This document shows positions 6,712 to 55,708 of a DNA stretch of 64,000 nucleotides, one piece after another. This DNA comes from Pyrinomonadaceae bacterium (GTDB taxonomy: Bacteria; Acidobacteriota; Blastocatellia; Pyrinomonadales; Pyrinomonadaceae). How positions within the stretch are numbered: position 1 is the stretch's first letter; each line of letters starts with the position of its first letter. The position numbers and the translations under genes were made by a program. The stretch spans positions 924-64,923 of the forward strand of contig DASVES010000154.1 in the NCBI GenBank assembly GCA_036380435.1, in the 5' to 3' direction. Under the pieces are notes generated by a model, which saw only the letters and a program-made list of their open reading frames with translations, was not told the origin of the DNA and did not search any database.

Positions 6712-6742
6712 TTGAATCGCGCCGCCCGATGTGGAATAAAAT
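6712..6742 (+). promoter_or_regulatory. Candidate sigma70-type promoter for the 6771 gene
   Basis: TTGAAT 6712-6717, 17-nt spacer, AATAAA/TAAAAT at 6735-6742. This implies a transcription start after the ATG at 6729. Confidence 0.35.
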
Positions 6743-6770
6743 GGCGACAACCCTGAAAGGAGAATCACAC

Positions 6771-8330: not shown

Positions 8331-8332
8331 CT

Positions 8333-8782
8333 TCAAGACTGCGGCTTGAAGTAGAGGGCCATGCCGGCGCCGAGGGCGGCGAGGAGGAAGCCGACGTAGA
8401 CGAGCGGGTTGGGCGCTTGCTTCGGCGGGTGGAGGATCATCGAGACGATGACGTTGACGACGGGCGCGCCGGCGAAGACGAGCGGCATCACGTAGGTCGG
8501 CAGTCCGCCGTTGCGGAAGGCGTAGATGATGCAGACCGCGCCGACGGCGCCGAGGGCCCCGCCGGCCGTCGCCGCCGCCGACCCCTTCAGGTTGAAGCCG
8601 CCGAGCTGCCCCTGCGACCACAGGCTGATGACGGGCACGAGCACCCCGACCAGAAAGTACGCCACGCCCACACACAGCAGCGCCCGCATCGGGTTCTTCA
8701 ACTCCACCTGCCCCTGATGCAGTATCGGCCCGTACAAACCCCACGACAGCGCCGCGCCGAGCGCGAAGATTACCCAGAGCAT
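8333..8782 (-). CDS. Small integral membrane protein, EamA/DMT-like half-transporter
   Basis: 149 aa with about four hydrophobic helices (MLWVIFALGAALSWGLYGPIL…, C-terminal VYVGFLLAALGAGMALYF). High GC3 frame. The family call is tentative. Confidence 0.6.
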   Translation of the reverse strand: MLWVIFALGAALSWGLYGPILHQGQVELKNPMRALLCVGVAYFLVGVLVPVISLWSQGQLGGFNLKGSAAATAGGALGAVGAVCIIYAFRNGGLPTYVMPLVFAGAPVVNVIVSMILHPPKQAPNPLVYVGFLLAALGAGMALYFKPQS

Positions 8783-8801
8783 AGAAGACCTCTCGGAAGA
8801 A

Positions 8802-8921
8802 GGGAGTCAGGAGTCAGGAGTCAGGAGTCAGAATAAAAACCTCCGACCGCGCCGGTCTGTGGTAACACGGCGGCCGTCCGTCGTCAATCTTCTGACTCCT
8901 GTCTTCTGACTCCTGACTCCC
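8802..8921. repeat. GAGTCAG heptamer-arm hairpin, copy 1
   Basis: gggagtcaggagtcaggagtcaggagtcagaataaaaac ... cttctgactcctgtcttctgactcctgactccc, followed by ttttttat. Confidence 0.9.
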
Positions 8922-8928
8922 TTTTTTA

Positions 8929-12314: not shown

Positions 12315-12374
12315 GCCTGAGCTATTTGAAAAGCCACGGTTGTCTGGCCGCGACAGCCGCGAGCGTCGTCACGC

Positions 12375-12467
12375 ACAGTACCGCGAGCGGAAGCCTCGCG
12401 GGTGCGGCCTGCGCTTAAGGCTCGCCTTGCGTGCGGCAGACCCGCTCGCTACCGCTCGCGGTACTGT
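12375..12467. repeat. ACAGTACCGCGAGCGG palindromic element, copy 2 (hybrid arms)
   Basis: The left arm is the ggaagcctcgcgggt variant and the right arm is the acccgctcgctacc variant, so only the outer 16 bp pair. It lies in a 5' region rather than a 3' region. Confidence 0.9.
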
Positions 12468-12571
12468 GGTTGTGTGGTTGCCCTCGCGTGGGCGGCGCGT
12501 TAAGGTTTGAATCTTCGTAGTACGTTTCGCCGTACATCCTGACGGGCGAAGATTCGGAGCCTTCAACACCC

Positions 12572-16204: not shown

Positions 16205-16876
16205 ATGAGCAACAAGATCGTCGTTCCGCGCAGGGAGTTTTTGCTGGCGGGCGCGGCGGCCGTCCCACTCCTCGGCGTCGCGGCCTCTCGCATGAAGCAG
16301 GGCGTCGTTGTCGAGCCGCTGGCGGCCAACGACGCTTCCGCCGCGGCCGAGACGTGTCGTCTCACGGAGGAGAGCCAGTACGGCCCCTTCTATCGCGAGG
16401 GCGCACCGTGGCGCGCGAAATTCTGCGGCTTGGAGGAGCCGGGCGAGCGGCTCACAATCGCGGGCCGCGTGACGGCCGCCGACAACTGCCAGCCGCTCAA
16501 AGACGCCGTCCTCGACGTGTGGCACGCGAGCGCCGCCGGCTTCTACGACAACAACGACCCGGCGCGCCCTTTCGACCCCGCGCGCTATCATCTGCGCGGC
16601 CGCGTCCGCACGGACTCGGACGGCCGCTACCAGTTCGAGACCGTCCTGCCCGGCAACTACGGACAGGGCCGCTTCATGCGCGCCAAGCACATCCACCTGC
16701 TCGTCACCTGCGCCGGCCGCGCGCCGCTCGTCACCGAAATCTACTTCGCTGGCGACAAGCACAACGACACCGACGGCCTCGTCCGCCGCTCACTCATCAC
16801 GCAGTTGTCGGGCGCCGCCCGCGAGAAGGACGCCGCTCCACAGCGCGGCACGTTCGACATCACTCTGGGGAAGTGA
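16205..16876 (+). CDS. Intradiol ring-cleavage dioxygenase-like protein with Tat-type leader
   Basis: MSNKIVVPRREFLLAGAAAVPLLG. Core YGPFYREGAP…LDVWHASAAGFYD…RGRVRTDSDGRYQFETVLPGNY…RAKHIHLLV. Stop TGA 16874-16876 lies inside the GTGATAA arm. Confidence 0.8.
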   Translation: MSNKIVVPRREFLLAGAAAVPLLGVAASRMKQGVVVEPLAANDASAAAETCRLTEESQYGPFYREGAPWRAKFCGLEEPGERLTIAGRVTAADNCQPLKDAVLDVWHASAAGFYDNNDPARPFDPARYHLRGRVRTDSDGRYQFETVLPGNYGQGRFMRAKHIHLLVTCAGRAPLVTEIYFAGDKHNDTDGLVRRSLITQLSGAAREKDAAPQRGTFDITLGK

Positions 16877-16946
16877 TAAGTGATGAGTGATAAGTGATAA
16901 GAAAGAACTGCCTCTCTTTCTTATCACTTATCACTCATCACTTATC
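16873..16946. repeat. GTGATAA heptamer-arm hairpin, copy 1
   Basis: gtgataagtgatgagtgataagtgataagaaaga ... tctttcttatcacttatcactcatcacttatc. TGA at 16874, 16881 and 16888 covers all three frames. Confidence 0.92.
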
Positions 16947-17388: not shown

Positions 17389-17395
17389 TTGATGA

Positions 17396-17486
17396 ACAGT
17401 ACCGCGAGCGGTAGCGAGCGGGTGTGGACACGCGACGCGAGCCTTCAGCGCAGGCCGCACCCGCTCGCTACCGCTCGCGGTACTGT
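17396..17486. repeat. ACAGTACCGCGAGCGG palindromic element, copy 3
   Basis: Perfect 28-nt arms acagtaccgcgagcggtagcgagcgggt / acccgctcgctaccgctcgcggtactgt. The loop is the reverse complement of the copy 1 loop type. Confidence 0.95.
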
Positions 17487-17579
17487 CCGCTACGAGCGGC
17501 GCGACGAAGCACTTCGCCACGCGGGAAATCGTCCGGCAGCGAGTTGAAAGCATGTGCGTGGATTTCATCGGCCGCACGC

Positions 17580-22361: not shown

Positions 22362-22378
22362 CCTGAGGGAGTTTTCAA

Positions 22379-22470
22379 ACAGTACCGCGAGCGGTAGCGA
22401 GCGGGTCTCGCGTGTGCGGTGCAGGCCGCTCATCATGGCCGCACCCGCTCGCTACCGCTCGCGGTACTGT
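22379..22470. repeat. ACAGTACCGCGAGCGG palindromic element, copy 4
   Basis: Perfect 28-nt arms, 18 nt after the upstream stop. Confidence 0.95.
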
Positions 22471-22535
22471 TGCCGATGACGGCGACGCGTCGGGCGGCGG
22501 GCGTTGTAGCGTCGCCATCAGACGCACGACGTTTC

Positions 22536-23068: not shown

Positions 23069-24130
23069 TCAGGGCTTGGCCTCGAAAATGAGATTGAATG
23101 GCGTTTCGGTGGCGCGGCGAAAGTGTTTGAATCCCCCGCCGGTGACAACCTCGCGCATTCTGGCTTCACCCGCTTGCGCCCCGAGCGCCAGCCCTACTTC
23201 CTGTGACAGAGACGCCGGAGTGCAGAGCAATGTCGAAGCGGAATAGTAGATGCGTCCGACCGGGTTCAGATTATCTTCCACTCGATCCCCGGCAAACGGC
23301 TCAACGATCATCCACGTGCCGTCAGGCGCAAGCGAGTCTTTGACATGAGCGGCCGCGCCGACGGGGTCTCCCATGTCATGCAAACAATCGAAGAACGTGA
23401 CGAAGTCGTAGTTATCTCCCGGATAATCTTTAGCCTTGGCGACTGCGAACTCCACGCGTTCAGCCACCCCCGCCTCGGCCGCCTTCTGCCGCGCCATTTC
23501 GATGGACTTGTCGTGATAATCGAAACCCACGAATGTAGAATTGGGGAAAGCCTGCGCCATCAGGATTGTCGAAGCGCCAAGCCCGCACCCCACGTCTGCC
23601 ACCTTCGCCCCTGACTTTAGTTTAGCCTCGACTCCGTCAAAAGCAGGGATCCATGCGTTGACCAGATTGGCGGCATAACCGGGGCGGAAAAATAGCTCAG
23701 TCCCACGAAACAATCCGTGATCGTGCTGATGCCAGCCGAAGCCCTCCCCCGTGCGAAATGCTTCGGTAATCTTCGGCACTGCTCTCAGCGAAGAGACGGC
23801 CAGCAAAAAAGCTCCCGGTAAATATGCCGGACTCTGCTCATCAGCCAGAGCGAAGGCTTGCTCCTCGGTGAGAAAGTAACGCTGCGTCTGGGCGTCATAT
23901 TCAACGTAACCCCCGGCCGCCTGTGAGCAGAGCCACTCGCGCACGTAACGCTCAGTCGTGTTGGTTCGCTCGGCCAGCTCGGCGGAAGTGAGCGGTTGCT
24001 CCGCCTGAGCCAGCGCCTTGTAAAGACCGAGGCTTTCGCCGATCACCACCAGACCAGCGTGGAGTGCCGCGCCGAAGTCGGCGACGAACTTTCCTAACAA
24101 TTGATTCAATTTTTCTTCGTTGATGGACAT
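23069..24130 (-). CDS. Class I SAM-dependent methyltransferase with N-terminal winged-helix domain (Rv2258c-like)
   Basis: N-terminal wHTH (LGLYKALAQAEQPLTSAELAERTNTTERYVREWL), SAM motif I VADVGCGLGAST. AAAGGAGAG RBS. Visibly lower GC than the flanking genes. Confidence 0.85.
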   Translation of the reverse strand: MSINEEKLNQLLGKFVADFGAALHAGLVVIGESLGLYKALAQAEQPLTSAELAERTNTTERYVREWLCSQAAGGYVEYDAQTQRYFLTEEQAFALADEQSPAYLPGAFLLAVSSLRAVPKITEAFRTGEGFGWHQHDHGLFRGTELFFRPGYAANLVNAWIPAFDGVEAKLKSGAKVADVGCGLGASTILMAQAFPNSTFVGFDYHDKSIEMARQKAAEAGVAERVEFAVAKAKDYPGDNYDFVTFFDCLHDMGDPVGAAAHVKDSLAPDGTWMIVEPFAGDRVEDNLNPVGRIYYSASTLLCTPASLSQEVGLALGAQAGEARMREVVTGGGFKHFRRATETPFNLIFEAKP

Positions 24131-24234: not shown

Positions 24235-24334
24235 TTCTCTGCGCGTCCTCGGCGTCCTCCGCGGCTCGGCGGTGAATCACGGCTGAAGGCCACTCACCGC
24301 AGAGTCGCCGAGGACGCCGAGGACGCGCAGAGAA
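24235..24334. repeat. CACCGCAGAG-family hairpin with CGAGGACGC repeats
   Basis: 25-bp perfect stem ttctctgcgcgtcctcggcgtcctc (24235-24259) / gaggacgccgaggacgcgcagagaa (24310-24334). Inner ggcggtgaat … actcaccgc. Confidence 0.9.
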
Positions 24335-25990: not shown

Positions 25991-26022
25991 TTTAAATTCC
26001 CTCCGATTACGAGCAAGGACTA

Positions 26023-26113
26023 ACAGTACCGCGAGCGGTAGCGAGCGGGTGCGCCTGCGGCGAAAGTCTCGCCCCGCGCACGCTGACCCGCTCGCTACCG
26101 CTCGCGGTACTGT
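26023..26113. repeat. ACAGTACCGCGAGCGG palindromic element, copy 5
   Basis: Perfect 28-nt arms, between two minus-strand propeller genes. Confidence 0.95.
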
Positions 26114-26132
26114 TTTTCATTTCATCCTTGCC

Positions 26133-27479
<1,347 letters not shown>

Positions 27480-27580
27480 GGTGCGATTTCCTCGGGCTGT
27501 AAGTTTAGACGGCACGGGGCGGAGTTTTGTTCCGTTTCCGCGTGATGTTTGGCTCGTTACTTGAGCGTTGGGCGAACTGG

Positions 27581-27717
27581 ACTCACCGCAGAGGCGCAGA
27601 GGACGCGGGGAAGCAAGGATGAAGGATGAAGGATGAAGGATGAGGGGAAGACGACCTGTCTTTTTTCATCCTTCATCCTTCATCCTTCATCCTTGCCTCT
27701 GCGCCTCTGCGGTGAAT
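27581..27717. repeat. Composite hairpin: CACCGCAGAGGCGCAGAGG outer arms plus GGATGAA heptamer inner arms
   Basis: actcaccgcagaggcgcagagg…caaggatgaaggatgaaggatgaaggatga / ttcatccttcatccttcatccttcatccttgcctctgcgcctctgcggtgaat. Confidence 0.92.
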
Positions 27718-27744: not shown

Positions 27745-29133
27745 TTAATTACCTGACTTCGAGACCTTGTCCTTCGCCGCTCCGGCCTCGCCGAAGGCGT
27801 AGACGTGTTTGAGGGCGCGGACGATGACGAGGCCGTCGGAGATGGCCGGCGTCGCCATGATGACCTCGCCGACCGGGTTGATGCCTAAGAACTCATACTT
27901 CGGCCCGGCCTTGACGACAAAGACCTCTCCGTCCTCGCTCGAAAAGTAGAGCTTGCCGTCGGCCGCCACCGGCGAGGCCGTGAACGCGCCGCCCTTGCCG
28001 CCGACCCGCTCCTGATAGAGCCGCTCGCCGGTCTTCGCGTTGTAGGCCGTCACCACGCCCTGATTCGAGATCGTGTAGAGATGATCGCCGTAGACGATGG
28101 GCGTCGGCATGTACGGGCCGCCGCGCTGCTTGCTCCACGCGATGGAATCGCTCGACTCCTTGCCTTCCTTGAGCGTGATGTCGCCCATGGCGCCGGGTTT
28201 GATGGCGTAGATGGGCTGGATGGGGCGGTAGCCGCTGGTGACGTAGATGAGGTCGTGGCCGAAGATGGGCGTCGGGGTGATGACCTCGGAGTTGGGCGTC
28301 AGACGCCACAGCTCTTTGCCGGTCGCGGGGTCGTAGCCGCGGATGGCCTTCGTGCCGTTGGTGACGAGTTCCGCGCGCGTCTTGCCCTCGACGACGGTCG
28401 GCGTGCTCCAGGAGGGAATCTCCTCGCGCGGCGTCATCCACAGGCGCTTGCCCGTCTTGATGTCGTAGGCCGCGATGAAGGAATCTTTCTGGATGTCGGC
28501 CTGCACGATGACCATGTTCTTGTAGATGATGGGCGAGGAGCCGTACTCCCACTGGTAATCGGGGTCGTAGAACCAGCCGGCGTCGAGCGTGCCGAGGTCT
28601 TGCTTCCACAAAAGCTTGCCGTTCAGGTCGTAGGCGTACAGGCCCTCGGAGCCGAACAGCGCGACGACGTATTTGCCGTCGGTGGCGGGCGTCGCCGCGG
28701 CGTGTGTTGACTTGGGATGGCGCTTCACCTTGGGCACGCCCTCCCATGCCGCGCGCTCCCACAGCACCTTGCCGGTGCGCTTGTCGAGCGCGTAGACCTT
28801 GTAGGTGTGCTTCGAGTCGTCCTTGACCGGGTCCACGTCGCCGTAGAGTCCGAAGCGCGTCTCGTCTTTAGCGGCGCCGCTGATGGCCGTGATGACGAAA
28901 ACTTTGTCGCCCCACACGACGGGGCTGGCGTGCGAGAGTCCGGGGATCGGGGTCTTCCACGCGACGTTCTGCGACTTGGCGGCGTCCCACGCGGCCGGCG
29001 TCGCCTTGCCGTCGGTCACGCCCGACGCGCTCACGCCGCGAAACTGCGGCCAGTTCTGGTTCTGAGTCTGCGCGCGGGCGCCGGCAGAGAGGGCGCTAAA
29101 GAGGCAGAGGAGGGAAAGTGCGAATCTTTTCAT
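27745..29133 (-). CDS. Secreted BamB/PQQ-like beta-propeller repeat protein
   Basis: MKRFALSLLCLFSALSAGARAQ, then NWPQFRGVSASG. Clearly paralogous to the 26133 gene (AWEGxPxxxRHxKS…, NGKLxWKxDLG). Confidence 0.9.
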   Translation of the reverse strand: MKRFALSLLCLFSALSAGARAQTQNQNWPQFRGVSASGVTDGKATPAAWDAAKSQNVAWKTPIPGLSHASPVVWGDKVFVITAISGAAKDETRFGLYGDVDPVKDDSKHTYKVYALDKRTGKVLWERAAWEGVPKVKRHPKSTHAAATPATDGKYVVALFGSEGLYAYDLNGKLLWKQDLGTLDAGWFYDPDYQWEYGSSPIIYKNMVIVQADIQKDSFIAAYDIKTGKRLWMTPREEIPSWSTPTVVEGKTRAELVTNGTKAIRGYDPATGKELWRLTPNSEVITPTPIFGHDLIYVTSGYRPIQPIYAIKPGAMGDITLKEGKESSDSIAWSKQRGGPYMPTPIVYGDHLYTISNQGVVTAYNAKTGERLYQERVGGKGGAFTASPVAADGKLYFSSEDGEVFVVKAGPKYEFLGINPVGEVIMATPAISDGLVIVRALKHVYAFGEAGAAKDKVSKSGN

Positions 29134-29156
29134 GGGAAGGAACCTCTCGGAAAGTC

Positions 29157-29240
29157 GGGAGTCAGGAGTCAGGAGTCAGGAGCCAGAAGGAAGAAAGCAA
29201 CCATGCTTTTATTCTGACTCCTGACTCCTGACTCCTGACT
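29157..29240. repeat. GAGTCAG heptamer-arm hairpin, copy 2
   Basis: gggagtcaggagtcaggagtcaggagcc … cttttattctgactcctgactcctgactcctgact. It abuts the TGA of the ankyrin gene. Confidence 0.9.
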
Positions 29241-30146
29241 TCACTGTTGTTTCGTTTCTTCGACCCTCGTGTAAGGGATGGTGGCCGGCCCCTGCTTGAG
29301 CGTGAAGCCGTTGACCTTGCCGGCCTCGGGCGTGAAGATAACGGTGATGCCGTCGAAGGCGGTCGGCTTGAAGGTCATCTTGTCGAGGGCGTACATGGTG
29401 AGCGGCGGCTGGCCCGTGGCCGCGGCGATGAGCTTGCCGTCCTTGACGGAGAAGACCAGCTCGGGGCCTTGCGTGCCCTTGAAGCGGCCGACGTATGTCT
29501 GGAGCGTCGCGGCATCGACCTCGGCGGGCGGCTGCGCGCCGGCCTTCTTCAACATCTCGACGATCTCGACTCCCTTATCGCCGGCCTCCGTCGCCGCGAC
29601 GAACGCGCCCGTCATCGACTCCGGCTTGAGATTGCCCTTGTCGAGCGCGGCGCGGACGAGCGCGGCGTTTCCGCCTCGCGCCCCCGTGGAAAGCACGTCG
29701 CCCGCGTCGTCGGCGCTCTTTTCAAGGATGGCGCGGACGGCATCGACGTGCCCCTTGTCGAGCGCCCACGTCATCGCCGTCGCGCCGTAGAAAGTATCGC
29801 GCACCGTCACATCAGCGCCGCGCTCGATGAGCAGTTTGACGATGTCGGCGTTGCCGCGCTCGGCGGCCTTGAACAGAGCCGTCGCGCCGTAGCGGAATTT
29901 GGCGTTCACGTCAGCGCCCTTGTCGAGCGTGGCCTTGACGGCGGCCACGTCGCCCTTGCGAACGGCCTCGTAGAGTTCATCGTTGAGCTTTTGTTTCTCC
30001 GGCGACGGTGTCGCGGCCGGCACGGGCGTCGGCGTCGCGGTCGGTGCTGGCGACGGTGTCGGCGTCGGCGTCGCGGTCTGCGCGATGGCGGCCGGCGGGG
30101 CGAGCAGGAGCAGGAGGAGGAGGGGCAGAAGTCTTCTGAGTTTCAT
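29241..30146 (-). CDS. Secreted ankyrin-repeat protein with extra C-terminal beta domain
   Basis: MKLRRLLPLLLLLLLAPPAAIAQ, Thr/Pro linker, then ANK repeats (GADVNAKFRYGATALFKAAERGNADIVKLLIERGADV…). ATG 30146 is preferred over 30236. Confidence 0.85.
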   Translation of the reverse strand: MKLRRLLPLLLLLLLAPPAAIAQTATPTPTPSPAPTATPTPVPAATPSPEKQKLNDELYEAVRKGDVAAVKATLDKGADVNAKFRYGATALFKAAERGNADIVKLLIERGADVTVRDTFYGATAMTWALDKGHVDAVRAILEKSADDAGDVLSTGARGGNAALVRAALDKGNLKPESMTGAFVAATEAGDKGVEIVEMLKKAGAQPPAEVDAATLQTYVGRFKGTQGPELVFSVKDGKLIAAATGQPPLTMYALDKMTFKPTAFDGITVIFTPEAGKVNGFTLKQGPATIPYTRVEETKQQ

Positions 30147-30588: not shown

Positions 30589-32805
30589 ATGCGTGCAATG
30601 TTGTTCTCCAGACGTTTCGTCCTCCTCGCCCTTTCAACTCTTCTGCTCGCGCCGGCCGCACTCGCGCAGAAACTCACCGGCCCCGTCGATTGGGCGGAGT
30701 GGCGCGGCCCCCTGCGCGACGGGCGCTCGTTCGAGAAGAATCTGCCGTCGAAGTGGTCGCCGGCGGGCGACGGCCTGTTGTGGAAGGCCCCCTACGGCGG
30801 GCGCTCGACGCCGGTCGTCTTCGGCGACCGTCTCTACTTGCAGAACACGGCCGAGAAGGGTGAGCGCGAGCAGGAGCGCGTGATCGCGTTTAACGCCGAC
30901 ACGGGCAAGCTCGTGTGGGAGCATCGCTTCAACGTGTACCTGTCGGACGTGCCGGCGCATCGTGTCGGATGGGCCTCGCCCGCGGTTGACCCGGCGACGG
31001 GCAACGTCTACGTGCTCGGCGGCGGGGGCACACTGCTCGCGCTCTCGGGGCGTGACGGAAAAGTTTTATGGGAGCGCACGCTCGGCGAAGACTTCGGCCT
31101 GCTGACGACGCACGGCGGGCGCACCATGTCGCCGATTGTTGACGGCGACTTAGTCATCGCCAGCGGCGTGATGTTCGTCTGGGGCCAGCACGGGCAAGGC
31201 CGACACCGCTTAGTCGCTTTCGACAAGCGGACGGGCGAGGCCGTCTGGGTGAGCGCGCCGGGCGGGCGGCCCTACGACACGACCTACTCGCCGCCGCTCA
31301 TCGCCAACGTGGCGGGGACGCGCCTGCTGCTTCAGGGCGGCTCGGACGGGCAGGTCTACGCCGTCAAGCCGCAGACGGGCGAGTTCGTCTGGAAGTACGA
31401 AATCTCGAAGCGCGGCCTGAACACGGGCGTCGTCGTGTCGGGGACGACCGCATATCTCACGCACAGCGAGGAGAACCTGAATTCGAGCGAGATGGGGATG
31501 CTCACGGCCGTGGACGCCACGGCCAAGGGCGACATCAAGCCGGAGCACGTGAAGTGGACGGTGACGGGCTGGCAGGGCGGCTTCTCCTCGCCCATCCTCG
31601 ACGGCGAACGCCTCTACCAGATCGACAACGGCGCCAACCTCGGCGCCTTCGACACCAACACCGGCAAGCAGCTCTGGCTCCAGAACCTCGGCACCATCCA
31701 GAAGGCTTCGCCCGTCTTGGCCGACGGCAAGCTCTACGTCGGCACCGAGAACGGCAAGTTCTTCATCATCGAGCCGTCGGCGACGGGCGCGAAAGTTCTC
31801 GACGAGGATCAGCTCGGCACCGCGGCCCTGCCCGAGTCCATCATCGCCTCGGTCGCCGTCTCCCGAGGCCGCATCTTCCTCGTCACCGACGCGGCGCTCT
31901 ACGCCTTCGGCAAGAAGTCGAACGCCGCGCCGCCGCCGCTCCCCGGCGACCCCGTCAGCGGCAACTCCAACCCGACGGTCGCGCACGTGCAGGTCGTCCC
32001 GACCGAGCTGCTGCTGCGGCCCGGCGACAAGGCGAGCTTCCGCGCGCGTCTCTTCGACGAGCGCGGCAACTTCATGCGCGAAGAGAAAGCGACGTGGACG
32101 CTCGAAGGACTCAAGGGCGCGGTCACCGAAACGGGGCAGTTCACGGCCGCGGGCGACGCGGCGCAGGCCGGTCTCGTCAAAGCCACGGTCGGCGGCGTCG
32201 CGGGCGCGGCCCGCGTGCGCGTCATCCCGCCGCTGCCGTGGGCCGAGAACTTCGACGCGCTGGAGCCGAACGCCAGTCCGGCGCACTGGACGAACGCGAC
32301 GATGAAGTTCGCCGTGCGCGAGATGGAGGGCAACAAGGTTCTGGTGAAGACGACCGAGGGGTCGTCGCTCCTGAGCCGCTCGCGCGCCTACATGGGCCAG
32401 CCCGACTTGCACGACTACACGGTCGAGGCCGACGTGCGCGGCGCCGAGCGCCGTCGCACGATGGGCGACGCCGGCGTCATCGCGCAGCGCTACGCCCTCA
32501 CGCTCTACGGCAACGGGCAGAGGCTCAGCATCGAGCCGTGGCAGCCCGAAGTCGAACGCACTGCCTCCGTCCCCTTCGAGTGGAAGAAAGACACGTGGTA
32601 TCGCATGAAGCTGCGGGTGGAGAACCTGCCCGACGGCCGTGTGCGCGCGCGCGGCAAGGTCTGGCTCACGGGCCAGCCGGAGCCGGAGGCGTGGACGATT
32701 GAGAAGGTCGATGCGCTCCCGAACCGCGTGGGCGCCCCCGGCATCTTCGGCAACGCGCTTGCCGAAATCTACTTCGATAACCTGAAGGTGTACGCCAACA
32801 ACTAG
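30589..32805 (+). CDS. Secreted multidomain protein: PQQ-like beta-propeller + Ig-like domain + LamG/DUF1080-like jelly-roll
   Basis: Signal peptide, DWAEWRGPLRDG and propeller blades. Then VAHVQVVPTELLLRPGDKASFRARLFDERGN (Big_2-like). C-terminal …WYRMKLRVENLPDGRVRARGKVW…EIYFDNLKVYANN (concanavalin-like). Confidence 0.85.
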   Translation: MRAMLFSRRFVLLALSTLLLAPAALAQKLTGPVDWAEWRGPLRDGRSFEKNLPSKWSPAGDGLLWKAPYGGRSTPVVFGDRLYLQNTAEKGEREQERVIAFNADTGKLVWEHRFNVYLSDVPAHRVGWASPAVDPATGNVYVLGGGGTLLALSGRDGKVLWERTLGEDFGLLTTHGGRTMSPIVDGDLVIASGVMFVWGQHGQGRHRLVAFDKRTGEAVWVSAPGGRPYDTTYSPPLIANVAGTRLLLQGGSDGQVYAVKPQTGEFVWKYEISKRGLNTGVVVSGTTAYLTHSEENLNSSEMGMLTAVDATAKGDIKPEHVKWTVTGWQGGFSSPILDGERLYQIDNGANLGAFDTNTGKQLWLQNLGTIQKASPVLADGKLYVGTENGKFFIIEPSATGAKVLDEDQLGTAALPESIIASVAVSRGRIFLVTDAALYAFGKKSNAAPPPLPGDPVSGNSNPTVAHVQVVPTELLLRPGDKASFRARLFDERGNFMREEKATWTLEGLKGAVTETGQFTAAGDAAQAGLVKATVGGVAGAARVRVIPPLPWAENFDALEPNASPAHWTNATMKFAVREMEGNKVLVKTTEGSSLLSRSRAYMGQPDLHDYTVEADVRGAERRRTMGDAGVIAQRYALTLYGNGQRLSIEPWQPEVERTASVPFEWKKDTWYRMKLRVENLPDGRVRARGKVWLTGQPEPEAWTIEKVDALPNRVGAPGIFGNALAEIYFDNLKVYANN

Positions 32806-32806
32806 A

Positions 32807-33859
32807 ATGAACGAAGACGCACAGCACGCGACGCAGGCGACGACGCCACAGCAACAACAGCAGGGGCCGACGCCCGAGCGCATCTTTCTAACGCTCACCG
32901 GCTATCAGCAGGCCGCCGCCCTGAAAGCCGCCATCGAGCTGGATATCTTCAGCGCCATCGCCGAGGGCGACGACACCAGTGAGAAGCTGGCCGCGCGCCT
33001 CCCGGCGGCCGAGCGCGGCGCGCGCATTCTCTGCGATTACCTGACCGCTTTGCAGTTTCTCGCCAAAGAGGACGGGCGCTACCAGCTCACGCCGGAGTCG
33101 AAGTTGTTTCTCGACCGCCGCTCGCCGGCCTACGTCGGCGGCGTCTCCGGCTTCCTCTCGCGGCCTTACATGATCGAGGCGTTTCAGAACGTGGCCGAAT
33201 GCGTCCGCAAGGGCGGCACGATGCTCGAAGATCAGGGCACGGTGACGCATGAGAACCCGATCTGGGAAGACTTCGCGCGCAGCATGGCGGCGATGATGCA
33301 GCCCTCGGCACAGGCCATCGCGCGCATCACGGGCGCGGCCGAGATGGAAGAGTGTAAGGTGCTCGACATCGCCGCCGGCCACGGCATCTTCGGTATCACC
33401 ATCGCCGAACAGAACCCGAGGGCCGAGGTCTACGCCGTCGATTGGCACAACGTCTTGCAGATTGCGCGCGAGAACGCCGCCAGCGCGGGCGTCGCCTCGC
33501 GCTATCACATGATGCCGGGCAGCGCCTTCGAGGTGTTGTTCGGCGACGACTACGACCTCGTGCTCTTTACCAACTTCTTTCACCACTTCGACCCGCCGAC
33601 CTGCGAGGCGCTGATGCGAAAAGCGCACGCCGCCCTCAAGCCGGGGGGCCGCGCCGTGACGCTCGAATTCGTGCCCAACGAAGACCGCGTCACGCCGCCC
33701 GCGGAAGCCGCCTTCGCCATGACCATGCTCGCCTCGACCCCTTCGGGCGACGCCTATACGTTCTCCGAATTCGACCAGATGTTCCGCAACGCCGGGTTCG
33801 CCCGCAGCGAGCTGCACCCGTCGCCGCCGGAGCACATCATCGTGAGCACAAAGCAGTGA
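32807..33859 (+). CDS. O-methyltransferase, family 2 (COMT/ASMT-like, with N-terminal dimerisation/wHTH domain)
   Basis: Starts 1 nt after the upstream stop. VLDIAAGHGIFGI SAM motif. Stop TGA 33857-33859 lies inside the AGCAGTG arm. Confidence 0.85.
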   Translation: MNEDAQHATQATTPQQQQQGPTPERIFLTLTGYQQAAALKAAIELDIFSAIAEGDDTSEKLAARLPAAERGARILCDYLTALQFLAKEDGRYQLTPESKLFLDRRSPAYVGGVSGFLSRPYMIEAFQNVAECVRKGGTMLEDQGTVTHENPIWEDFARSMAAMMQPSAQAIARITGAAEMEECKVLDIAAGHGIFGITIAEQNPRAEVYAVDWHNVLQIARENAASAGVASRYHMMPGSAFEVLFGDDYDLVLFTNFFHHFDPPTCEALMRKAHAALKPGGRAVTLEFVPNEDRVTPPAEAAFAMTMLASTPSGDAYTFSEFDQMFRNAGFARSELHPSPPEHIIVSTKQ

Positions 33860-33992
33860 GCAGTGAGCAGTAACACAGAGGAATTGAAGTCAATGAAAAA
33901 TATTCGACGCAGTAGAGTCATCATTCTTTTAACGGCGGTGTTCGCGGCGGTAGCGGCAGGCGGTTTACTGCTTACTGCTCACGGCTCACTGC
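33853..33992. repeat. AGCAGTG heptamer-arm hairpin spanning a gene junction
   Basis: Left arm gcagtgagcagtgagcagtaa (33853-33873), right arm ttactgcttactgctcacggctcactgc (33965-33992). The 91-nt loop holds the RBS and ATG 33893 of the next gene. Confidence 0.85.
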
Positions 33993-35431
33993 CGAACCCT
34001 TCAGACCCCGGCACCGGCGACTGGCCGATGTGGGGCGGCACGCCCGACCGCAACATGGTCACGAGCATGAAGGGGCTGCCCGTCTCGTGGGACGTGAAGA
34101 CGAAGAAGAACGTCAAGTGGATGGCGCAACTGGGTTCGCAGACCTACGGCAATATCACGGTGGCGGGCGGCATCGTCTTAGTCGGCACCAACAACGAGGG
34201 CGCGCGCGATCCCAAGATCACCGGCGACAAGGGCGTGCTCATGGCCTTCAAGGAGTCCGACGGCACGTTTCTCTGGCAGGCCGTCCACGACAAGCTCGTC
34301 GCGGGCCGCGTCAACGACTGGCCGTATCAGGGCATCGCCTCCTCGCCCCTCGTCGAAGGGGAGCGCGTCTACTACGTCTCTAATCGGGGCGAGTTGATGT
34401 GCGTCGATGCTCAGGGGTTCCGCGACAAGGAGAACGACGGCCCCGTGACCGACGAGAAGCTGACGGGCGAGACCAACCCGGACATCATCTGGCGGCTCGA
34501 CATGATGGGCGACGAGGTCGGGAGCTTCCCGCACAACCTCTGCAACTCCTCGCCCGTCTCCTACGGCGACCTCGTCTACGTCAGCACCTCGAATGGGCAG
34601 GACGAGAGCCACGTCAACATCCCCGCGCCGAAGGCCCCGGCCATCATCGCCGTCGATAAGAAGACCGGGAAAGTCGTCTGGGAGGACGCCAGCCCCGGCG
34701 ACAAGATTCTCCACGGGCAGTGGTCAACACCCACGGTCGGAAAAATCGGCGACACCGTACAGGTCATCATGGGTCAGGGCGACGGCTGGGCGCGCGGCTA
34801 CGACGCTTTGAAGGGCACGAAGCTCTGGGAGTTCGACCTCAACCCGAAGGACTCCGTCTGGCCCAAGACGCGCAACGAGATCATCGCCACCCCGGTCATC
34901 TACGAGGGCAAGATTTATCTCGCCAACGGACAAGACCCGGAGCACGGCGAAGGCGTCGGCCACATGTACTGCATCGACGGCACCAAGCGCGGCGACATCA
35001 CGAAGACCGGCATGGTCTGGCACTACGACAAGATTCGCCGCACCATCTCAACGCCGGCCATCGTTGACGGCATCATCTATCAACCCGACTTCAGCGGCTT
35101 CCTCCACGCCATCGACGCCAAGACCGGACAGGCTTACTGGGTACACGACATGTTCGCGGCCATGTGGGGGTCGCCCCTGGCGTCGGTCGCGGGCGGCGTG
35201 CTGTATCTGGGCGACGAGGACGGCGACGTGGTCGTCATGCAGTTGGGGAAGACGAAGAAGGTGCTGGCCGAGATCAACATGGGAAGCTCTGTCTACAGCA
35301 CGCCCGTGCCGGCCAACGGCGCGCTCTACATCGCCAACCGCAACCAGCTCTTCGCGCTGGCCGAGGGGGCCGGCGGCGCGCCCGCCACGCCCAAGCCGGC
35401 GACGGCCTCGGCCACGCCGGCCAACCCGTAG
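33893..35431 (+). CDS. BamB/PQQ-like beta-propeller repeat protein with N-terminal signal anchor
   Basis: GAGGA RBS, MKNIRRSRVIILLTAVFAAVAAGGLLLTA, then DWPMWGGTPDRN. C-terminal Ala/Pro tail. Confidence 0.88.
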   Translation: MKNIRRSRVIILLTAVFAAVAAGGLLLTAHGSLPNPSDPGTGDWPMWGGTPDRNMVTSMKGLPVSWDVKTKKNVKWMAQLGSQTYGNITVAGGIVLVGTNNEGARDPKITGDKGVLMAFKESDGTFLWQAVHDKLVAGRVNDWPYQGIASSPLVEGERVYYVSNRGELMCVDAQGFRDKENDGPVTDEKLTGETNPDIIWRLDMMGDEVGSFPHNLCNSSPVSYGDLVYVSTSNGQDESHVNIPAPKAPAIIAVDKKTGKVVWEDASPGDKILHGQWSTPTVGKIGDTVQVIMGQGDGWARGYDALKGTKLWEFDLNPKDSVWPKTRNEIIATPVIYEGKIYLANGQDPEHGEGVGHMYCIDGTKRGDITKTGMVWHYDKIRRTISTPAIVDGIIYQPDFSGFLHAIDAKTGQAYWVHDMFAAMWGSPLASVAGGVLYLGDEDGDVVVMQLGKTKKVLAEINMGSSVYSTPVPANGALYIANRNQLFALAEGAGGAPATPKPATASATPANP

Positions 35432-36772: not shown

Positions 36773-36804
36773 ATTAGTTTTCGCTTGAGTGTAAGGAAGG
36801 TTGT

Positions 36805-36851
36805 ACTCACCGCAGAGGCGCAGAGGACGCAGAGGGGGCGCAGAGAGTTGA
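36805..36851. repeat. Solo half of a CACCGCAGAG-family element (no partner arm)
   Basis: actcaccgcagaggcgcagaggacgc is identical to 27581-27606. It continues gcagagggggcgcagagagttgaa, like 35496-35518. No inverted partner lies nearby. Confidence 0.8.
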
Positions 36852-36871
36852 AGCGTTTAGAGGGAGGGAAG

Positions 36872-38038
36872 ATGCGGGAAGTTGAAAGTGAAGAAGGGCA
36901 GGAGACGTTGGCGCGTTCAATCTCGCGGCGCGGGTTCCTCGCGGTGCCCGTGGGTCTCTACCTCGCGGGCCATGCGGCGCGCGCGCAGGAGTTCACGGGC
37001 GGCGACAGTTGGCCGCAGTTTCGGGGCAACCCGGCGCTGACCGGCTTTACGCGCTCCGGTCTCTCGGACACGTTGCGCGTGCTGTGGACTTACGAGGCGG
37101 GCGAGTCGGTCGAGTCATCGGCGGCGATTGTGGGCGGCACGGTCTACGTCGGCTCGCAGAAGGGGGAGCTGGTGGCGCTCGATTTGGGAAGCGGGCGCGA
37201 GCGTTGGAAGTACGGGGCCGGGTCGCCGATAGGCGAGTCGTCGCCGGCGGTCGTCGGCGGCACGGTCTACGTCGGCGACCTCGGCGGCACAGTCCACGCC
37301 GTCTCGGCGCGCGACGGGAAGCGCGTGTGGGTTTTCAAGACGGGGAGCGAGGTGAAGTCGTCGCCGGTCGTAAGCGCCGGCAAGGTGCTCGTCGGCTCTT
37401 ACGATCAGCACTTGTACGCCCTCGCGGCGCGCGGCGGAAACGTCCTCTGGAAGATGAAGACGGACGGCGCCGTCCATTGCACGGCGTCGGTCGTGGGCGG
37501 CGTCGCTTACATCTCGGGTTGCGATGAGCGTCTGAGGGCCGTGCGCGTCGCCGACGGCCGACAGGTCTTCCAGCTCAACTCGGGCGCATACACCGGCGCC
37601 TCGCCCGCCATCATGGCCGGCAACGCCTTCTACGGCACCTTCAACAACGACGTGCTCGGCATCAACCTCGTCGCCAAGCGCGTCGGCTGGCGCTACACGA
37701 ACCCGGAGCGGCAGTTCCCGTTCTATTCCTCGGCGGCGGCCGTGGACGCGCGCGTCGTCGTCGGCGGGCGCGACAAGGCCGTCCATTGTCTCGACGCGCG
37801 CAACGGCGCTCGACTCTGGAGCTTCAACACGCAGGCGCGCGTCGATTCGTCGCCCGCGCTCGCCGCCGGGCGCGTCTTCGTCGGCTCGAACGACGGACGC
37901 CTCTACGCGCTCGACTTCTTCTCCGGCGACAAGGCGCAGGAGTTCAACCTCGGCGGCCCCGTCTCGGCCTCGCCGGCCGTCGCCGCGGGCCGCGTCGTCG
38001 TCGGCACGCAGGACGGGCGCGTTTACTGTTTGGGATGA
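36872..38038 (+). CDS. BamB/PQQ-like beta-propeller repeat protein with Tat-type signal
   Basis: AGGGAGGGA RBS. …SISRRGFLAVPVGLYLAGHAARAQE, then SWPQFRGNPALTG. Regular VVGGTVYVGS…G.L.ALD…G blades. Confidence 0.88.
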   Translation: MREVESEEGQETLARSISRRGFLAVPVGLYLAGHAARAQEFTGGDSWPQFRGNPALTGFTRSGLSDTLRVLWTYEAGESVESSAAIVGGTVYVGSQKGELVALDLGSGRERWKYGAGSPIGESSPAVVGGTVYVGDLGGTVHAVSARDGKRVWVFKTGSEVKSSPVVSAGKVLVGSYDQHLYALAARGGNVLWKMKTDGAVHCTASVVGGVAYISGCDERLRAVRVADGRQVFQLNSGAYTGASPAIMAGNAFYGTFNNDVLGINLVAKRVGWRYTNPERQFPFYSSAAAVDARVVVGGRDKAVHCLDARNGARLWSFNTQARVDSSPALAAGRVFVGSNDGRLYALDFFSGDKAQEFNLGGPVSASPAVAAGRVVVGTQDGRVYCLG

Positions 38039-38061: not shown

Positions 38062-38275
38062 GAGCGCCGGAGGCGCGGAAGAATGTAGCCCACGGCGTCA
38101 GCCGTGGGTTTTAAGCGGCAACCAAAATCAAAGCCCCGGAGGGGCGAAAGAAGTGCAGCGCGCGTCTAACGGCGGTCGCAATTTCTTTCGCCCCTCCGGG
38201 GCTTCATTTCCTTTGCCGGGCCTGTCCCCACGGCTCGCGCCGTGGGCTACACTCTTCCGCCGCTTTCAGCGGCTC
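38062..38275. repeat. Multi-hairpin palindromic element, copy 3
   Basis: gaagaatgtagcc / ggctacactcttc outer stem. cccacggc-gtca-gccgtggg, central agccccggaggggcgaaagaa / ttctttcgcccctccggggct, cccacggc-tcgc-gccgtggg. Degenerate heptamer arms lie outside at 38036-38055 and 38281-38301. Confidence 0.9.
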
Positions 38276-38811: not shown

Positions 38812-38849
38812 CGCTTTAATCTCCTGAATGACACCTGATTGTGGGAGCA

Positions 38850-38941
38850 ACAGTACCGCGAGCGGTAGCGAGCGGGTCTGACGCACGCGTGGCGAGCCTC
38901 TCAGTACAGCCGCACCCGCTCGCTACCGCTCGCGGTACTGT
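38850..38941. repeat. ACAGTACCGCGAGCGG palindromic element, copy 6
   Basis: Perfect 28-nt arms. Confidence 0.95.
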
Positions 38942-38963
38942 GGAAAACGGCCGCGGCGGGCAG

Positions 38964-41181: not shown

Positions 41182-41200
41182 CTAGAAGCTCCTATGAATA

Positions 41201-41269
41201 GGTGATAAGTGATAAGTGATAAGTGATAAGAAAGAATTTGTCTTCTCTTATCACTTATCACTTATCACC
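41201..41269. repeat. GTGATAA heptamer-arm hairpin, copy 2 (between DUF3311 and the symporter)
   Basis: ggtgataagtgataagtgataagtgataagaaaga … tcttctcttatcacttatcacttatcacc. Confidence 0.92.
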
Positions 41270-47047: not shown

Positions 47048-48087
47048 CGAAGAAAAAAAAGCCGACCGTCAAGAAGCTCCGCATTCTCGTGCTCTGCCAG
47101 CACGACCTCGTCCCGCCCGACGCGCTCCCCGAGGGCGTGGCGAAGGAGACGCTGCGCTGGCGCACCGAGTACGACGTGGTCTCCACCTTACGCTCGATGG
47201 GCCACGACGTTTACCCCGTCGGCCTCTACGACGAGACGGACGTGATTCGCACGGCGATGCAGGATCACGAGCCGCACGTCGCCTTCAATCTCATCGAAGA
47301 GTTCGACCGCCAGCCCATGTTCGACCAGCACGTCGTCAGCTATCTGGAGCTGAAGCGTCTGCCCTACACGGGCTGCAACCCGCGCGGCCTGACCATCGCC
47401 AAAGATAAGGCGCTCACCAAGAAGATTCTGGCCTACCACCGTATCAACGTCCCCGGCTTCGGCGTCTTCCCGCAAGGACGCAAGGTGCGCCGGCCCGCGC
47501 GCCTGCGCTTTCCGCTGCTCGTCAAGTCCGTGACGGTCGAAGGCTCGGTCGGCATCTCGCAGGCTTCCATCGTCAACACTGACGAAAAACTCGCCGAGCG
47601 CGTCGATTTCATCCACCGGCAGACGAACTCGCCGGCCATCGCCGAGGAGTTCATCGAGGGGAGAGAAATCTACGTCGGCGTCATCGGCAACCGTCTGCTG
47701 AAGGCTTACACGCCGTGGGAGCTGGAGATGAAGACGCTGCCCGAGGGGACTGTGAACATCGCCACGGGGAAGGTGAAGTGGAACCCGAAGTATCAGGAGA
47801 AAGTCGGCCTCGTCACGCACGCGGCCGAGGTCACGCCCGAGCTGCGCCGCCGCCTCGAACATCTCTCGAAGCGCATCTACCGCCTGCTGTTTCTCTCCGG
47901 CTACGGCCGTCTCGACTACCGCATCACCGAGGACGGCCGCATCTATCTCCTCGAAGCCAACCCCAACCCGCAAATCGCCCACAACGAGGACTTCGCCGAC
48001 TCGGCCGAAGACTGCGGCGTCAAATACGGCCCGCTGCTCCAGAAAATCCTCACCCTCGGCATGAGCTACGAGCCGGGCGTGGTGTAA
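47044..48087 (+). CDS. ATP-grasp ligase, D-Ala-D-Ala ligase-like family
   Basis: …KDKALTKKILAYHRINVPGF…PLLVKSVTVEGSVGIS…EEFIEGREIYVGV…GRLDYRITEDGRIYLLEANPNP. The track ORF from 46321 is an out-of-frame shadow extension. Confidence 0.85.
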   Translation: MTKKKKPTVKKLRILVLCQHDLVPPDALPEGVAKETLRWRTEYDVVSTLRSMGHDVYPVGLYDETDVIRTAMQDHEPHVAFNLIEEFDRQPMFDQHVVSYLELKRLPYTGCNPRGLTIAKDKALTKKILAYHRINVPGFGVFPQGRKVRRPARLRFPLLVKSVTVEGSVGISQASIVNTDEKLAERVDFIHRQTNSPAIAEEFIEGREIYVGVIGNRLLKAYTPWELEMKTLPEGTVNIATGKVKWNPKYQEKVGLVTHAAEVTPELRRRLEHLSKRIYRLLFLSGYGRLDYRITEDGRIYLLEANPNPQIAHNEDFADSAEDCGVKYGPLLQKILTLGMSYEPGVV

Positions 48088-48091
48088 AAAA

Positions 48092-48176
48092 GCAGTCAGG
48101 AGTCAGGAGTCAGGAGTCAGAATAAAAACGGAGGCGCTGTCTTCATTCTGACTCCTGACTCCTGACTCCTGGCTCC
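48092..48176. repeat. GAGTCAG heptamer-arm hairpin, copy 3
   Basis: gcagtcaggagtcaggagtcaggagtcagaataaaaac … cattctgactcctgactcctgactcctggctcc, followed by tgtttta. Confidence 0.9.
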
Positions 48177-48300
48177 TGTTTTATCCCTTTCGTCCTGAAG
48201 CGCGGCCCTTTCGTCCCACGCCGCTTCACAGGGCGGCGCGGGGGCGTTTATACTCACGCGTTTCGACGGGGTGGGCGGCGCGCGACTGTGGGTGCTTTCT

Positions 48301-52364: not shown

Positions 52365-52604
52365 ATGAAAGATGGGAATTGGCAGACGGAGGTCGAGGTC
52401 ATCGACGGCGAGGTGCTGCGGCTGTTGGAGCGCCGGTCGCAGATCGTCGCGCTGGCCGCGTGCGCCGGCGACTACGCGCGGGCGGCGCGGCAGGTCGATA
52501 CGAGCGCCGGCGGCGAAGCGCGCCCGCGACGCTCACGGGCGGCGTCGCTCTACGCCTCACAGCCGCACCCGGAGGCGCACGTCGCCGCCGGTGATTTGCC
52601 GTGA
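52365..52604 (+). CDS. Small hypothetical protein (N-terminal helix faintly chorismate-mutase-like)
   Basis: GGAAGGAG RBS 9 nt upstream of the ATG. GC3-rich frame. EVIDGEVLRLLERRSQIVALA. Otherwise low complexity. Confidence 0.35.
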   Translation: MKDGNWQTEVEVIDGEVLRLLERRSQIVALAACAGDYARAARQVDTSAGGEARPRRSRAASLYASQPHPEAHVAAGDLP

Positions 52605-52606
52605 GG

Positions 52607-52769
52607 AGCTATTAGCCATTTGCTGTTAGCTGTTAGCTAAATGCTGTCCGTTGTCCGTGGTCAGTCATCCGTTGCTCGCGGCCCGCGGCTTGAGCCGTCC
52701 GACGCGAGCGGGAAGAAGCGTCAACGGAAAGCGTTTAGCTAACAGCTAATGGCTAACAGCTAACAGCTT
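52607..52769. repeat. GCTGTTA heptamer-arm hairpin
   Basis: gagctattagccatttgctgttagctgttagctaaa … tttagctaacagctaatggctaacagctaacagctt, with a loop of about 92 nt. Confidence 0.9.
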
Positions 52770-52788
52770 CTTGCGTTAGAATCTGTGT

Positions 52789-55438: not shown

Positions 55439-55473
55439 CGTCGTCATCGCGTCCTTTGCGCCTTCATTGAGAA

Positions 55474-55567
55474 ACAGTACCGCGAGCGGCAGCCTCGCGG
55501 GTGTGTCTACGATGAGCGGCCCGCTTAGCGCATGCGAGACCCGCGAGGCTTCCGCTCGCGGTACTGT
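55474..55567. repeat. ACAGTACCGCGAGCGG palindromic element, copy 7 (variant arms on both sides)
   Basis: acagtaccgcgagcggcagcctcgcgggtg … acccgcgaggcttccgctcgcggtactgt. Both arms carry the cctcgcggg variant, so pairing is kept apart from one mismatch. Confidence 0.92.
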
Positions 55568-55708
55568 GCTTCTGGCATATGAAGACTCACGCGAAAGGCG
55601 CAAAGATAAGGCGCGGTTGAAACGTGGGGAGGGGGTTGGTCGCTTGTGTGCCGGCGGCGGATTGCTGTTACATTAGACAGCGACTTCACACGGACGGGAA
55701 AACCGAAC

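Follow-up and report, generated by a model that had tools for sequence, protein, structure and literature searches.

The 64-kb window analyzed here (the whole stretch of 64,000 nucleotides from contig DASVES010000154.1 of a Pyrinomonadaceae bacterium) contains three palindromes of approximately 210 nt, at positions 6444-6653 (copy A), 8071-8281 (copy B), and 38063-38274 (copy C), which are far beyond chance. Each copy is a head-to-head inverted pair of ~90-nt units around a 30-nt centre. These pairs are most probably gene-less mobile repeats, resembling REP doublets forming hairpins (REPINs; REP, repetitive extragenic palindromic) and miniature inverted-repeat transposable elements (MITEs), rather than an RNA tied to the propeller genes that precede them. 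The observations behind this reading are the anatomy of the copies, their membership in a known family, their reciprocal association with Y1 transposase genes, and a DNA-like pairing pattern.

The 21-mer AGCCCCGGAGGGGCGAAAGAA occurs six times exactly in the window, as three inverted pairs, and three more times with 2-3 mismatches in the outer arms of the copies; shuffled sequence yields no matches, and none are expected by chance. Scanned with a covariance model of the unit, the 64 kb yield exactly six full matches, with no singletons and nothing more, and the aligned copies display long invariant blocks, exact blocks of 21-46 nt being common to the elements. Each unit comprises, in this order, hairpin B1 (TTCTTTC-GCCCC-TCC-GGGGC-T), a T-rich spacer, hairpin A, a linker (CTACATTCT), and hairpin B2, with B1 in the inner, A in the middle, and B2 in the outer position. 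Hairpin A carries a GTAG/CTAC tetranucleotide at its foot, and GTAG (read as CTAC) abuts this hairpin in all six window units. The central spacer measures exactly 30 nt in the three copies and is unrelated in sequence between them.

Copy C illustrates this arrangement. Its left unit (38063-38152, minus strand) reaches 91.8 bits with the unit model (R1) and 58.2 bits with the Rfam model RF01687 on 38063-38108(-), and consists of B2 (38063-38076), the linker with its GTAG foot (38077-38088), hairpin A (38089-38108), the spacer (38109-38131), and B1 with a linker-like tail (38132-38152). The 30-nt central spacer (38153-38182) lies at a position that is occupied by a Y1 transposase gene in related genomes. 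The right unit (38183-38274, plus strand; R1 83.4 bits; RF01687 41.6 bits on 38227-38274(+)) mirrors the left one, with B1 at 38183-38203, the T-rich spacer at 38204-38226, hairpin A at 38227-38246, the linker CTACACTCTTCC at 38247-38258, and B2 at 38259-38274. In copy A, a left unit at 6444-6533 (minus strand; R1 87.3 bits; RF01687 54.4 bits on 6444-6489(-)), whose hairpin A reads CCCCGGTC/GACCGGGG, is separated by a partly self-complementary 30-nt spacer (6534-6563; CATTAAC...GTTGATG) from a right unit at 6564-6653 (plus strand; R1 82.1 bits; RF01687 43.1 bits on 6606-6653(+)). The left unit of copy B (8071-8161, minus strand; R1 72.1 bits) holds a variant hairpin A, CCACGGG/CCCGTGG with a 7-nt loop, and reaches 29 bits with RF01687 on 8071-8102(-), below the gathering score of 37; it is followed by the 30-nt spacer (8162-8191) and by a right unit at 8192-8281 (plus strand; R1 95.9 bits; RF01687 57.9 bits on 8236-8281(+)).

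The sequence-only reading of this DNA had described the copies as cloverleaf-like palindromes made of an outer stem, two small hairpins, and a long central stem. Copy A turns out to be wider than the 6455-6640 then proposed, with outer hairpins of 5-6 bp at 6444-6457 and 6638-6653. The four-way cloverleaf fold is recovered for copies A and B, but not for copy C, whose left and right small hairpins complement each other, so that one long hairpin results (-163.9 kcal/mol as RNA, z = -14.3; -97.2 as DNA, z = -14.7). The fold z-scores of copies A and B are -16.5 and -12.0, respectively, so that the copies span -12 to -16.5. The left small hairpin does differ in sequence in each copy while its pairing is kept in all three. 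Two points had been missed. First, both arms of the long central stem are small hairpins in their own right (GCCCC-GGA-GGGGC, tail GAAAGAA); they resemble the outer hairpin and differ by 2-3 mismatches from that hairpin plus its linker. Second, the outer 46 nt of each side correspond to the curated Rfam family RF01687. The 46-nt model of this family spans hairpin A (CCCACGGC-loop-GCCGUGGG), the linker (CUACAUUCUUCC), and a 5-bp hairpin B, and the outer stem is therefore formed by two linkers lying face to face.

Every copy is matched at its two ends by RF01687, also named Acido-Lenti-1, on the minus strand at the left and on the plus strand at the right. Of the six arms, five score 41.6-58.2 bits over model positions 1-46, above the gathering score of 37, and the sixth scores 29 bits. 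Sub-threshold matches to miRNA and snoRNA families in a permissive Rfam scan were of the kind that any long hairpin gives, and were set aside. In Rfam, the family is entered as a free-standing 'Gene; sRNA' (small RNA) of unknown function. The outer 46 nt of each window unit fit this model end to end; however, the motif makes up half of a longer unit here, has its mirror image on the opposite strand in every case, and provides the ends on either side of a transposase gene. One recent study reads Acido-Lenti-1 matches as possible regulators of Tannerella protease genes, and the four listed papers that mention the motif, judged in part by title and abstract, make no link to transposases.

The exact 21-mer AGCCCCGGAGGGGCGAAAGAA is present in at least 109 genome stretches (one genome per species searched), mostly from Acidobacteriota, with about a dozen each from Verrucomicrobiota and Planctomycetota and a few from other phyla. 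The taxonomy of these loci, where they come from metagenome-assembled genomes (MAGs), may hold binning errors, although several of the stretches sit on contigs of 0.1-2 Mb, and several of the non-acidobacterial matches are on long contigs. Among the listed loci, which were chosen by the exact 21-mer so that the apparent conservation of B1 is inflated, this sequence is nearly always followed by 18-28 variable T-rich nucleotides, then by CCCACGGC-loop-GCCGTGGG-CTRCATTCT and a 5-bp hairpin; 85 such units were used to build the unit covariance model. The tetranucleotide at the foot of hairpin A, scored in 137 units, is CTAC in 50, CTGC in 34, CTAA in 16, and CTAT in 14. The loop of hairpin A holds a further small palindrome in some units (L027, L041, L088; L002, L064), for example CCCACGGCTTGCGCCCCTTCGACAAGCTCAGGGCAAGCTGTGGG, which suggests that repeats have inserted into repeats.

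The hairpins of the unit covary: pairing holds in 98% of the cells, changes on both sides are seen in 15 of 18 pairs, and none of 500 shuffles reaches these values. Of the alignments behind this result, one had been selected for pairing (A2) and the other fitted to the structure (A3). Covariation was also the ground on which Acido-Lenti-1 was rated as a probable RNA (Weinberg 2010, PMC2864571). Together with the Rfam class, the five arms above the gathering score, and the position of all three window copies just 3' of genes on the coding strand, it favours a structured RNA, which would be either an Acido-Lenti-1 sRNA or a 3' untranslated region (UTR) element of the propeller mRNAs involved in stability, localisation, or regulation. 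The mismatches within the pairs do not follow this expectation, since G:T (19) is no commoner than A:C (25) or the other combinations (25). With no wobble excess on either strand, the pairing is almost strictly of the Watson-Crick type whichever strand is considered, which points to a DNA palindrome, and the constraint on the element thus appears to act on the DNA. In this respect, the earlier suggestion of a cruciform-forming DNA site fits. A structured RNA is further disfavoured by the mirroring of the motif on both strands in every copy, by its role as the inverted ends around a transposase gene, by one unit lying in frame inside a DnaE2-like open reading frame (ORF) in five genomes, and by the lack of propeller ORFs near the 109 listed copies, and is considered very improbable.

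The association with a transposase is evident from the spacing of the units. Among the 197 units of the listed loci, head-to-head gaps are largely bimodal: 43 doublets have a centre of 3-41 nt, whereas ten pairs have a centre of 370-541 nt, with two pairs in between (75 and 117 nt). All ten long centres contain a Y1 ORF or a remnant of it, and in several loci the 21-mer lies directly 5' of an ORF starting with MSHTYTNLLTHVIFSTKDR. These ORFs of ~148 residues match the Pfam family Y1_Tnp (PF01797, E = 2.5e-21) and pass the NCBIfam model for IS200/IS605 transposases (63 bits against a cut-off of 55), and their closest solved structures are those of ISDra2 and other IS200/IS605-type TnpA proteins. 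Seven intact proteins of 148-150 residues share invariant DH[VI]H, WQ, and YIxxQxxHH motifs (D54, H55, H57, W94, Q95, Y114, Q118, H121, and H122 in the seven-protein alignment). Close relatives are named 'RayT' in some JGI records and IS200/IS605 family transposase at NCBI; the partner protein is not a canonical REP-associated tyrosine transposase (RAYT). The search for a RAYT-type gene proposed by the sequence-only reading was thus the right lead, as a Y1 gene is indeed bracketed in related genomes, but the enzyme is IS200-like. Of the readings then offered, the nested MITE is the nearest, given the inverted units around this gene elsewhere.

The association also holds in the reverse direction. 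When Y1 homologues were taken from a protein search and fetched blind to the repeat, units abutted the gene in four of four distinct places, ending 1 nt before the ATG and/or starting 1-3 nt past the stop codon, and the RF01687 model matched both flanks of these genes. Most of the bracketed Y1 genes belong to Acidobacteriota MAGs; one further gene carries the label Deltaproteobacteria and another Binatus. Most protein clusters at 90% identity are present on 1-3 contigs, which fits a low copy number without proving it, and exact-protein look-ups gave one place each on contigs of 1.3 Mb and 2.1 Mb.

Some of these loci show further peculiarities. On a 2.1-Mb contig (L132), two Y1 genes are adjacent on opposite strands (612-1264 and 1405-2008), each with its own pair of units, the one 3' of the second gene being weak (14 bits). 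In four other loci (L061, L045, L098, and L054), the Y1 gene between the units has decayed (N-terminal loss, frameshift, or truncation), and the units themselves are intact. In units beside Y1 genes, the loop and stem of B1 contain a GGAGG located 11-12 nt upstream of the ATG (AGCCCCGGAGGGGCGAAAGAAC-ATG; for example, L038 7832-7852 and L131 1405-1499). In IS200, a hairpin with GGAGG just upstream of the start codon sequesters the ribosome-binding site. By its sequence, the repeat end studied here may likewise both supply and sequester the ribosome-binding site of the transposase.

As the sequence-only reading had pointed out, all three window copies lie 3' of propeller genes. These are of the PQQ_2 type, and copies A, B, and C begin 66, 16, and 24 nt past the respective stop codons. 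Seven such paralogues, 20-44% identical to one another, are encoded in the 64 kb (5118-6377, 6771-8054, 26133-27515(-), 27745-29133(-), 30589-32805, 33863-35431, and 36785-38038), in the neighborhood of two outer-membrane proteins of the OMP_b-brl_4/CarboxypepD_reg type and two MacB/FtsX-type permeases. Such domain architectures, like the best DNA matches, suggest Acidobacteriota as the probable phylum. The placement of the copies, together with two distant metagenome homologues that have doublets just past the stop codon, would be explained if the element were the propeller genes' own 3' flank, co-duplicated with the paralogues. However, the three upstream propellers are only 23-27% identical to one another, while the elements share exact blocks of 21-46 nt, which implies that the elements were not co-duplicated with the genes. 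A metagenome scan with the focal propeller (36785-38038) recovered 20 homologous loci, and the element is absent from 15 of ~17 homologous loci. Among these is the closest orthologue (92% amino acid identity), where a GC hairpin followed by a T-run terminator takes its place after the stop codon. When 4592 ORFs from the 109 listed loci (757 kb in total) were searched by phmmer with six window propellers, no propeller was detected near the other copies; across genomes, the copies are scattered without a link to propellers, beside unrelated genes in many phyla, which is the outcome that the sequence-only reading had named as refuting its proposal. The idea of a structured 3' UTR RNA co-duplicated with the propeller genes is therefore not supported, on account of the divergence of the paralogues, the orthologue without the element, and the copies without propellers, and a duplicated flank in general is largely refuted and extremely unlikely.

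The two exceptions among the homologous loci (L119 2137-2355, 62% amino acid identity; L121 4237-4442, 58%) hold doublets of the same architecture 3' of the focal-propeller homologue. They belong to a diverged sequence subfamily (for instance, hairpin B reads GCCCGC-GAAA-GCGGGT), a further argument against a duplicated flank, and could have arisen either by separate insertions at similar sites or from one old insertion common to both.

Regarding their genomic placement, 19, 11, and 3 doublets fall in convergent, tandem, and divergent intergenic regions, respectively, against a background of 101, 225, and 81, according to heuristic GC3-based gene calls that recover most window genes but miss at least the Pfam-supported one at 23069-24130. 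Both this excess (19 of 33 classifiable doublets convergent, 25% expected) and the location of two of the three window copies between convergent genes would be accounted for by bidirectional terminators or 3'-end stabilisers evolved by the host, in which case the likeness to transposase flanks would be secondary and function, instead of mobility, would explain the spread. The GC-rich central stem has an A-rich tract on one side and a T-rich one on the other, the 14 nt past B1 contain 44% T (background 20%), and a consensus terminator scan picks out B1 with its tail on either strand (in the three copies together), with tails of only 5 T in 8; moreover, the closest orthologue holds an ordinary terminator hairpin at the same spot. 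On the other hand, a terminator does not need ~210 nt, three kinds of hairpins, and a 21-nt core that is identical across phyla; nor does this proposal account for units that precisely bracket Y1 genes, for single units in all contexts, ORF interiors included, or for a T-rich peak that is offset from the stem. As the exclusive explanation it is improbable, and a terminator role is besides compatible with mobile doublets as a side effect. The placement is thus consistent with insertion into, or tolerance in, 3' and terminator regions, and also with a possible side effect as bidirectional terminator.

The pattern of two genes each followed by an imperfect palindrome (5118-8282) is reminiscent of integron cassettes, with the copies acting as attC-type sites in a gene-palindrome-gene-palindrome array. 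Some group II introns target attC sites. Group II introns have been reported near the Acido-Lenti-1 motif in Lentisphaerae (Weinberg 2010, PMC2864571), which would agree with this possibility. Nevertheless, the copy ends have no GTTRRRY / RYYYAAC cores, the associated enzyme is a Y1 HUH transposase and not an integron integrase (no search was aimed at intI), and the copies are dispersed instead of arrayed. The attC reading was rejected on these sequence grounds, and its probability is close to negligible.

If the window copies are mobile doublets, they would represent the non-autonomous form of the system, namely the bracket of the Y1 gene without the gene. The Y1 enzyme would be encoded elsewhere in the genome, would recognize the hairpins as single-stranded DNA, cut beside the foot tetranucleotide by means of its HUH and Tyr residues, and move or copy units and doublets, which would survive mainly in 3' intergenic DNA. 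In transcripts, the long GC-rich stem, T-rich on either flank, may in addition terminate transcription in both directions or protect 3' ends. This mechanism is proposed by analogy with the TnpA proteins of IS200/IS605 and TnpA-REP from E. coli, whose biochemistry is established (summarized in PMC6006769).

Several observations weigh against mobile doublets and have to be set beside the evidence above. No Y1 gene was found in the 64-kb window, and the bracketed Y1 protein fails the NCBIfam model REP_Tyr_transpos (21 bits against a cut-off of 80). No filled-versus-empty pair of sites was found either, so mobility, like any terminator role, is something that we infer. The 92% orthologue lacks the element, yet its downstream neighbour differs as well, synteny being broken at that point. 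The selection or fitting of the alignments also bears on the covariation. Across the family, T peaks 8-12 nt past the B1 stem and not directly after it, which is weak for a classical intrinsic terminator. Finally, all three window copies follow propellers, in a region with ~7 of these among ~50 genes (post-hoc hypergeometric p ~0.002), and two of the ~17 homologous propeller loci carry diverged doublets directly after the stop codon. The latter is not clearly above the base rate (three doublets per ~50 genes in the window), and the former, although unexplained, is probably a local coincidence in a propeller-rich region.

Two more specific models of how the doublets arose were also considered. 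A 30-nt centre left over from a deleted Y1 gene finds no support, as the centres show no relationship from copy to copy and are partly self-complementary. The other model, in which doublets insert at the apex of a palindrome already in place, holds only for a subset (window copy B, L089, and L021); flank complementarity is modestly enriched, 7 of 42 doublets ranking lower than the 5th percentile of the permuted controls.

Window copy B and a minority of the other doublets are located inside palindromes of tandem heptamers, in which a repeat on one arm faces its complement on the other. The sequence-only reading had placed AGCAGTG-type arms around two of the copies. Those around copy B are clear: the left arm, (AGCAGTG)n at 8045-8070, overlaps the propeller stop codon (TGA, 8052-8054), and the right arm (CGCTCACTGCTTACTGCTCACTC, 8309-8331) abuts the 3' end of a convergent EamA-like gene (8333-8782, minus strand). 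Around copy C, they are recognizable only loosely. Heptamers also flank the doublet in L021 (AGTGAGC) and precede that in L119 (GGAGTCA). Such palindromes occur without doublets elsewhere in the window, at 8797-8926, 29152-29248, 48086-48196, 16859-16907, 41188-41236, 27602-27707, 33842-33876, 52604-52771, and 24235-24334. The types include (GTCAGGA)n/(TCCTGAC)n, (GTGATAA)n, (GGATGAA)n, (AGCAGTG)n, TTAGCTG, and GCAGAGG, and several lie near gene ends with A-rich or T-rich tails. They may act as bidirectional terminators, although their origin is unexplained.

A second and more abundant palindromic family has seven copies in the window (504-583, 12369-12474, 17390-17493, 22373-22477, 26017-26120, 38844-38948, and 55468-55574), each consisting of ACAGTACCGCGAGCGGTAGCGAGCGGGT, ~40 nt, and ACCCGCTCGCTACCGCTCGCGGTACTGT with a GTAG/CTAC foot. 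This layout resembles that of a canonical GTAG-type REP doublet, and the family presumably has a transposase of its own encoded elsewhere.

The best known systems of this kind are the REPtrons, in which REPs, bacterial interspersed mosaic elements (BIMEs), or REPINs are associated with a RAYT, also named TnpA-REP (Nunvar 2010; Bertels & Rainey 2011, PMC3116915; Ton-Hoang 2012; Quentin 2018, PMC6006769). The elements described here share with them short hairpins whose foot carries a GT[AG]G tetranucleotide, pairs of inverted repeats that fold together as a long hairpin around a short spacer, the bracketing of a low-copy Y1/HUH gene by repeats in inverted orientation (here in related genomes only), and dispersed intergenic copies with a bias to 3' regions. 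However, while a REP is a single palindrome of 20-40 nt, the unit here has ~90 nt and three hairpins; the partner is IS200-like, with the motif YIxxQxxHH instead of the Y..NP of RAYTs; and several phyla have the 21-nt core in identical form, in contrast to REP sequences, which as a rule are restricted to one lineage.

In TIRtrons, Y1 genes (TIRYTs) are flanked by long terminal inverted repeats (TIRs), copies of which are also found single, dimeric, and clustered, Acidobacteria included (Di Nocera et al. 2013, PMC3733652), as is the case of the units described here. Nevertheless, the TIRYTs from Acidobacteria aligned in that work (aba 1552, aba 3477, tsa 392, and others) are longer and RAYT-like (PMC3733652). 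Identity with them was rejected in view of their Y..NP motif, which places them in a different Y1 group. With IS200/IS605 elements and their MITE-like derivatives, there is agreement in the fold and motifs of the transposase, in the hairpins at the ends, and, for IS200, in the hairpin with GGAGG just before the start codon. Yet the ends of IS200/IS605 are asymmetric sub-terminal hairpins without long inverted repeats, unlike the mirror-image 90-nt units, and they occur as multi-copy whole elements, often with tnpB, none of which was seen here.

Among the Y1 proteins, the closest correspondence is with TnpA-Y1 subclass 1.2, described as mainly from Cyanobacteria and Bacteroidetes and listed as 'REP: no' (Quentin 2018, PMC6006769, Table 1). 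All four signatures of this subclass (148-150 residues, the HuH motif DH[VI]H, WQ, and YI..Q..HH) are matched, the assignment being made from these motif signatures alone and not with the authors' hidden Markov model, and the copy number is apparently low in both. In contrast, the genes studied here are tightly bracketed by a dispersed repeat and come mostly from Acidobacteriota MAGs.

A broader scenario that brings these elements together is tentative, with the odds rather against it. Subclass 1.2 Y1 proteins, described in 2018 as lacking both associated repeats and the behaviour of insertion sequences, would drive a second, independently arisen REPIN-type system, in which Acido-Lenti-1 would be the DNA partner. 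This system, whose 21-nt core is identical in Acidobacteriota, Verrucomicrobiota, and Planctomycetota, would have spread between phyla instead of descending by strictly vertical inheritance. Co-option would have turned its doublets into bidirectional 3'-end elements or, in occasional cases, into in-frame insertions in proteins such as DnaE2.

The in-frame case corresponds to a single unit at 2193-2279 of L017, located inside an ORF (91-3129) that reads through it (…PAAKRRQNAAHGASRGLDAKNDAAPEGRKKIALRMGLRYVRGL…) and is called DnaE2-like from the IALRMGLRYVRGL motif alone. Four other loci from Acidobacteriaceae/Terriglobia MAGs (L032, L073, L083, and L099) have the same coding flanks around the unit. 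This arrangement resembles that of the Rickettsia palindromic elements (RPEs).

The organization of these elements can be identified with confidence as that of REPIN-RAYT REPtrons and TIRtrons, within which mobility, horizontal spread, and a terminator function are predicted from sequence. Although the finding touches no long-standing open question, it removes a false lead, as the elements are not a propeller-specific regulatory RNA. It also suggests that what Rfam curates as an 'sRNA' family is, in the DNA, the recognition end of a repeat associated with a transposase, which would change the annotation of Acido-Lenti-1 matches, for example, their reading as regulators of protease genes in Tannerella. 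Finally, it supplies a candidate substrate for a subclass of Y1 proteins whose function was left open in 2018 (Quentin, PMC6006769).

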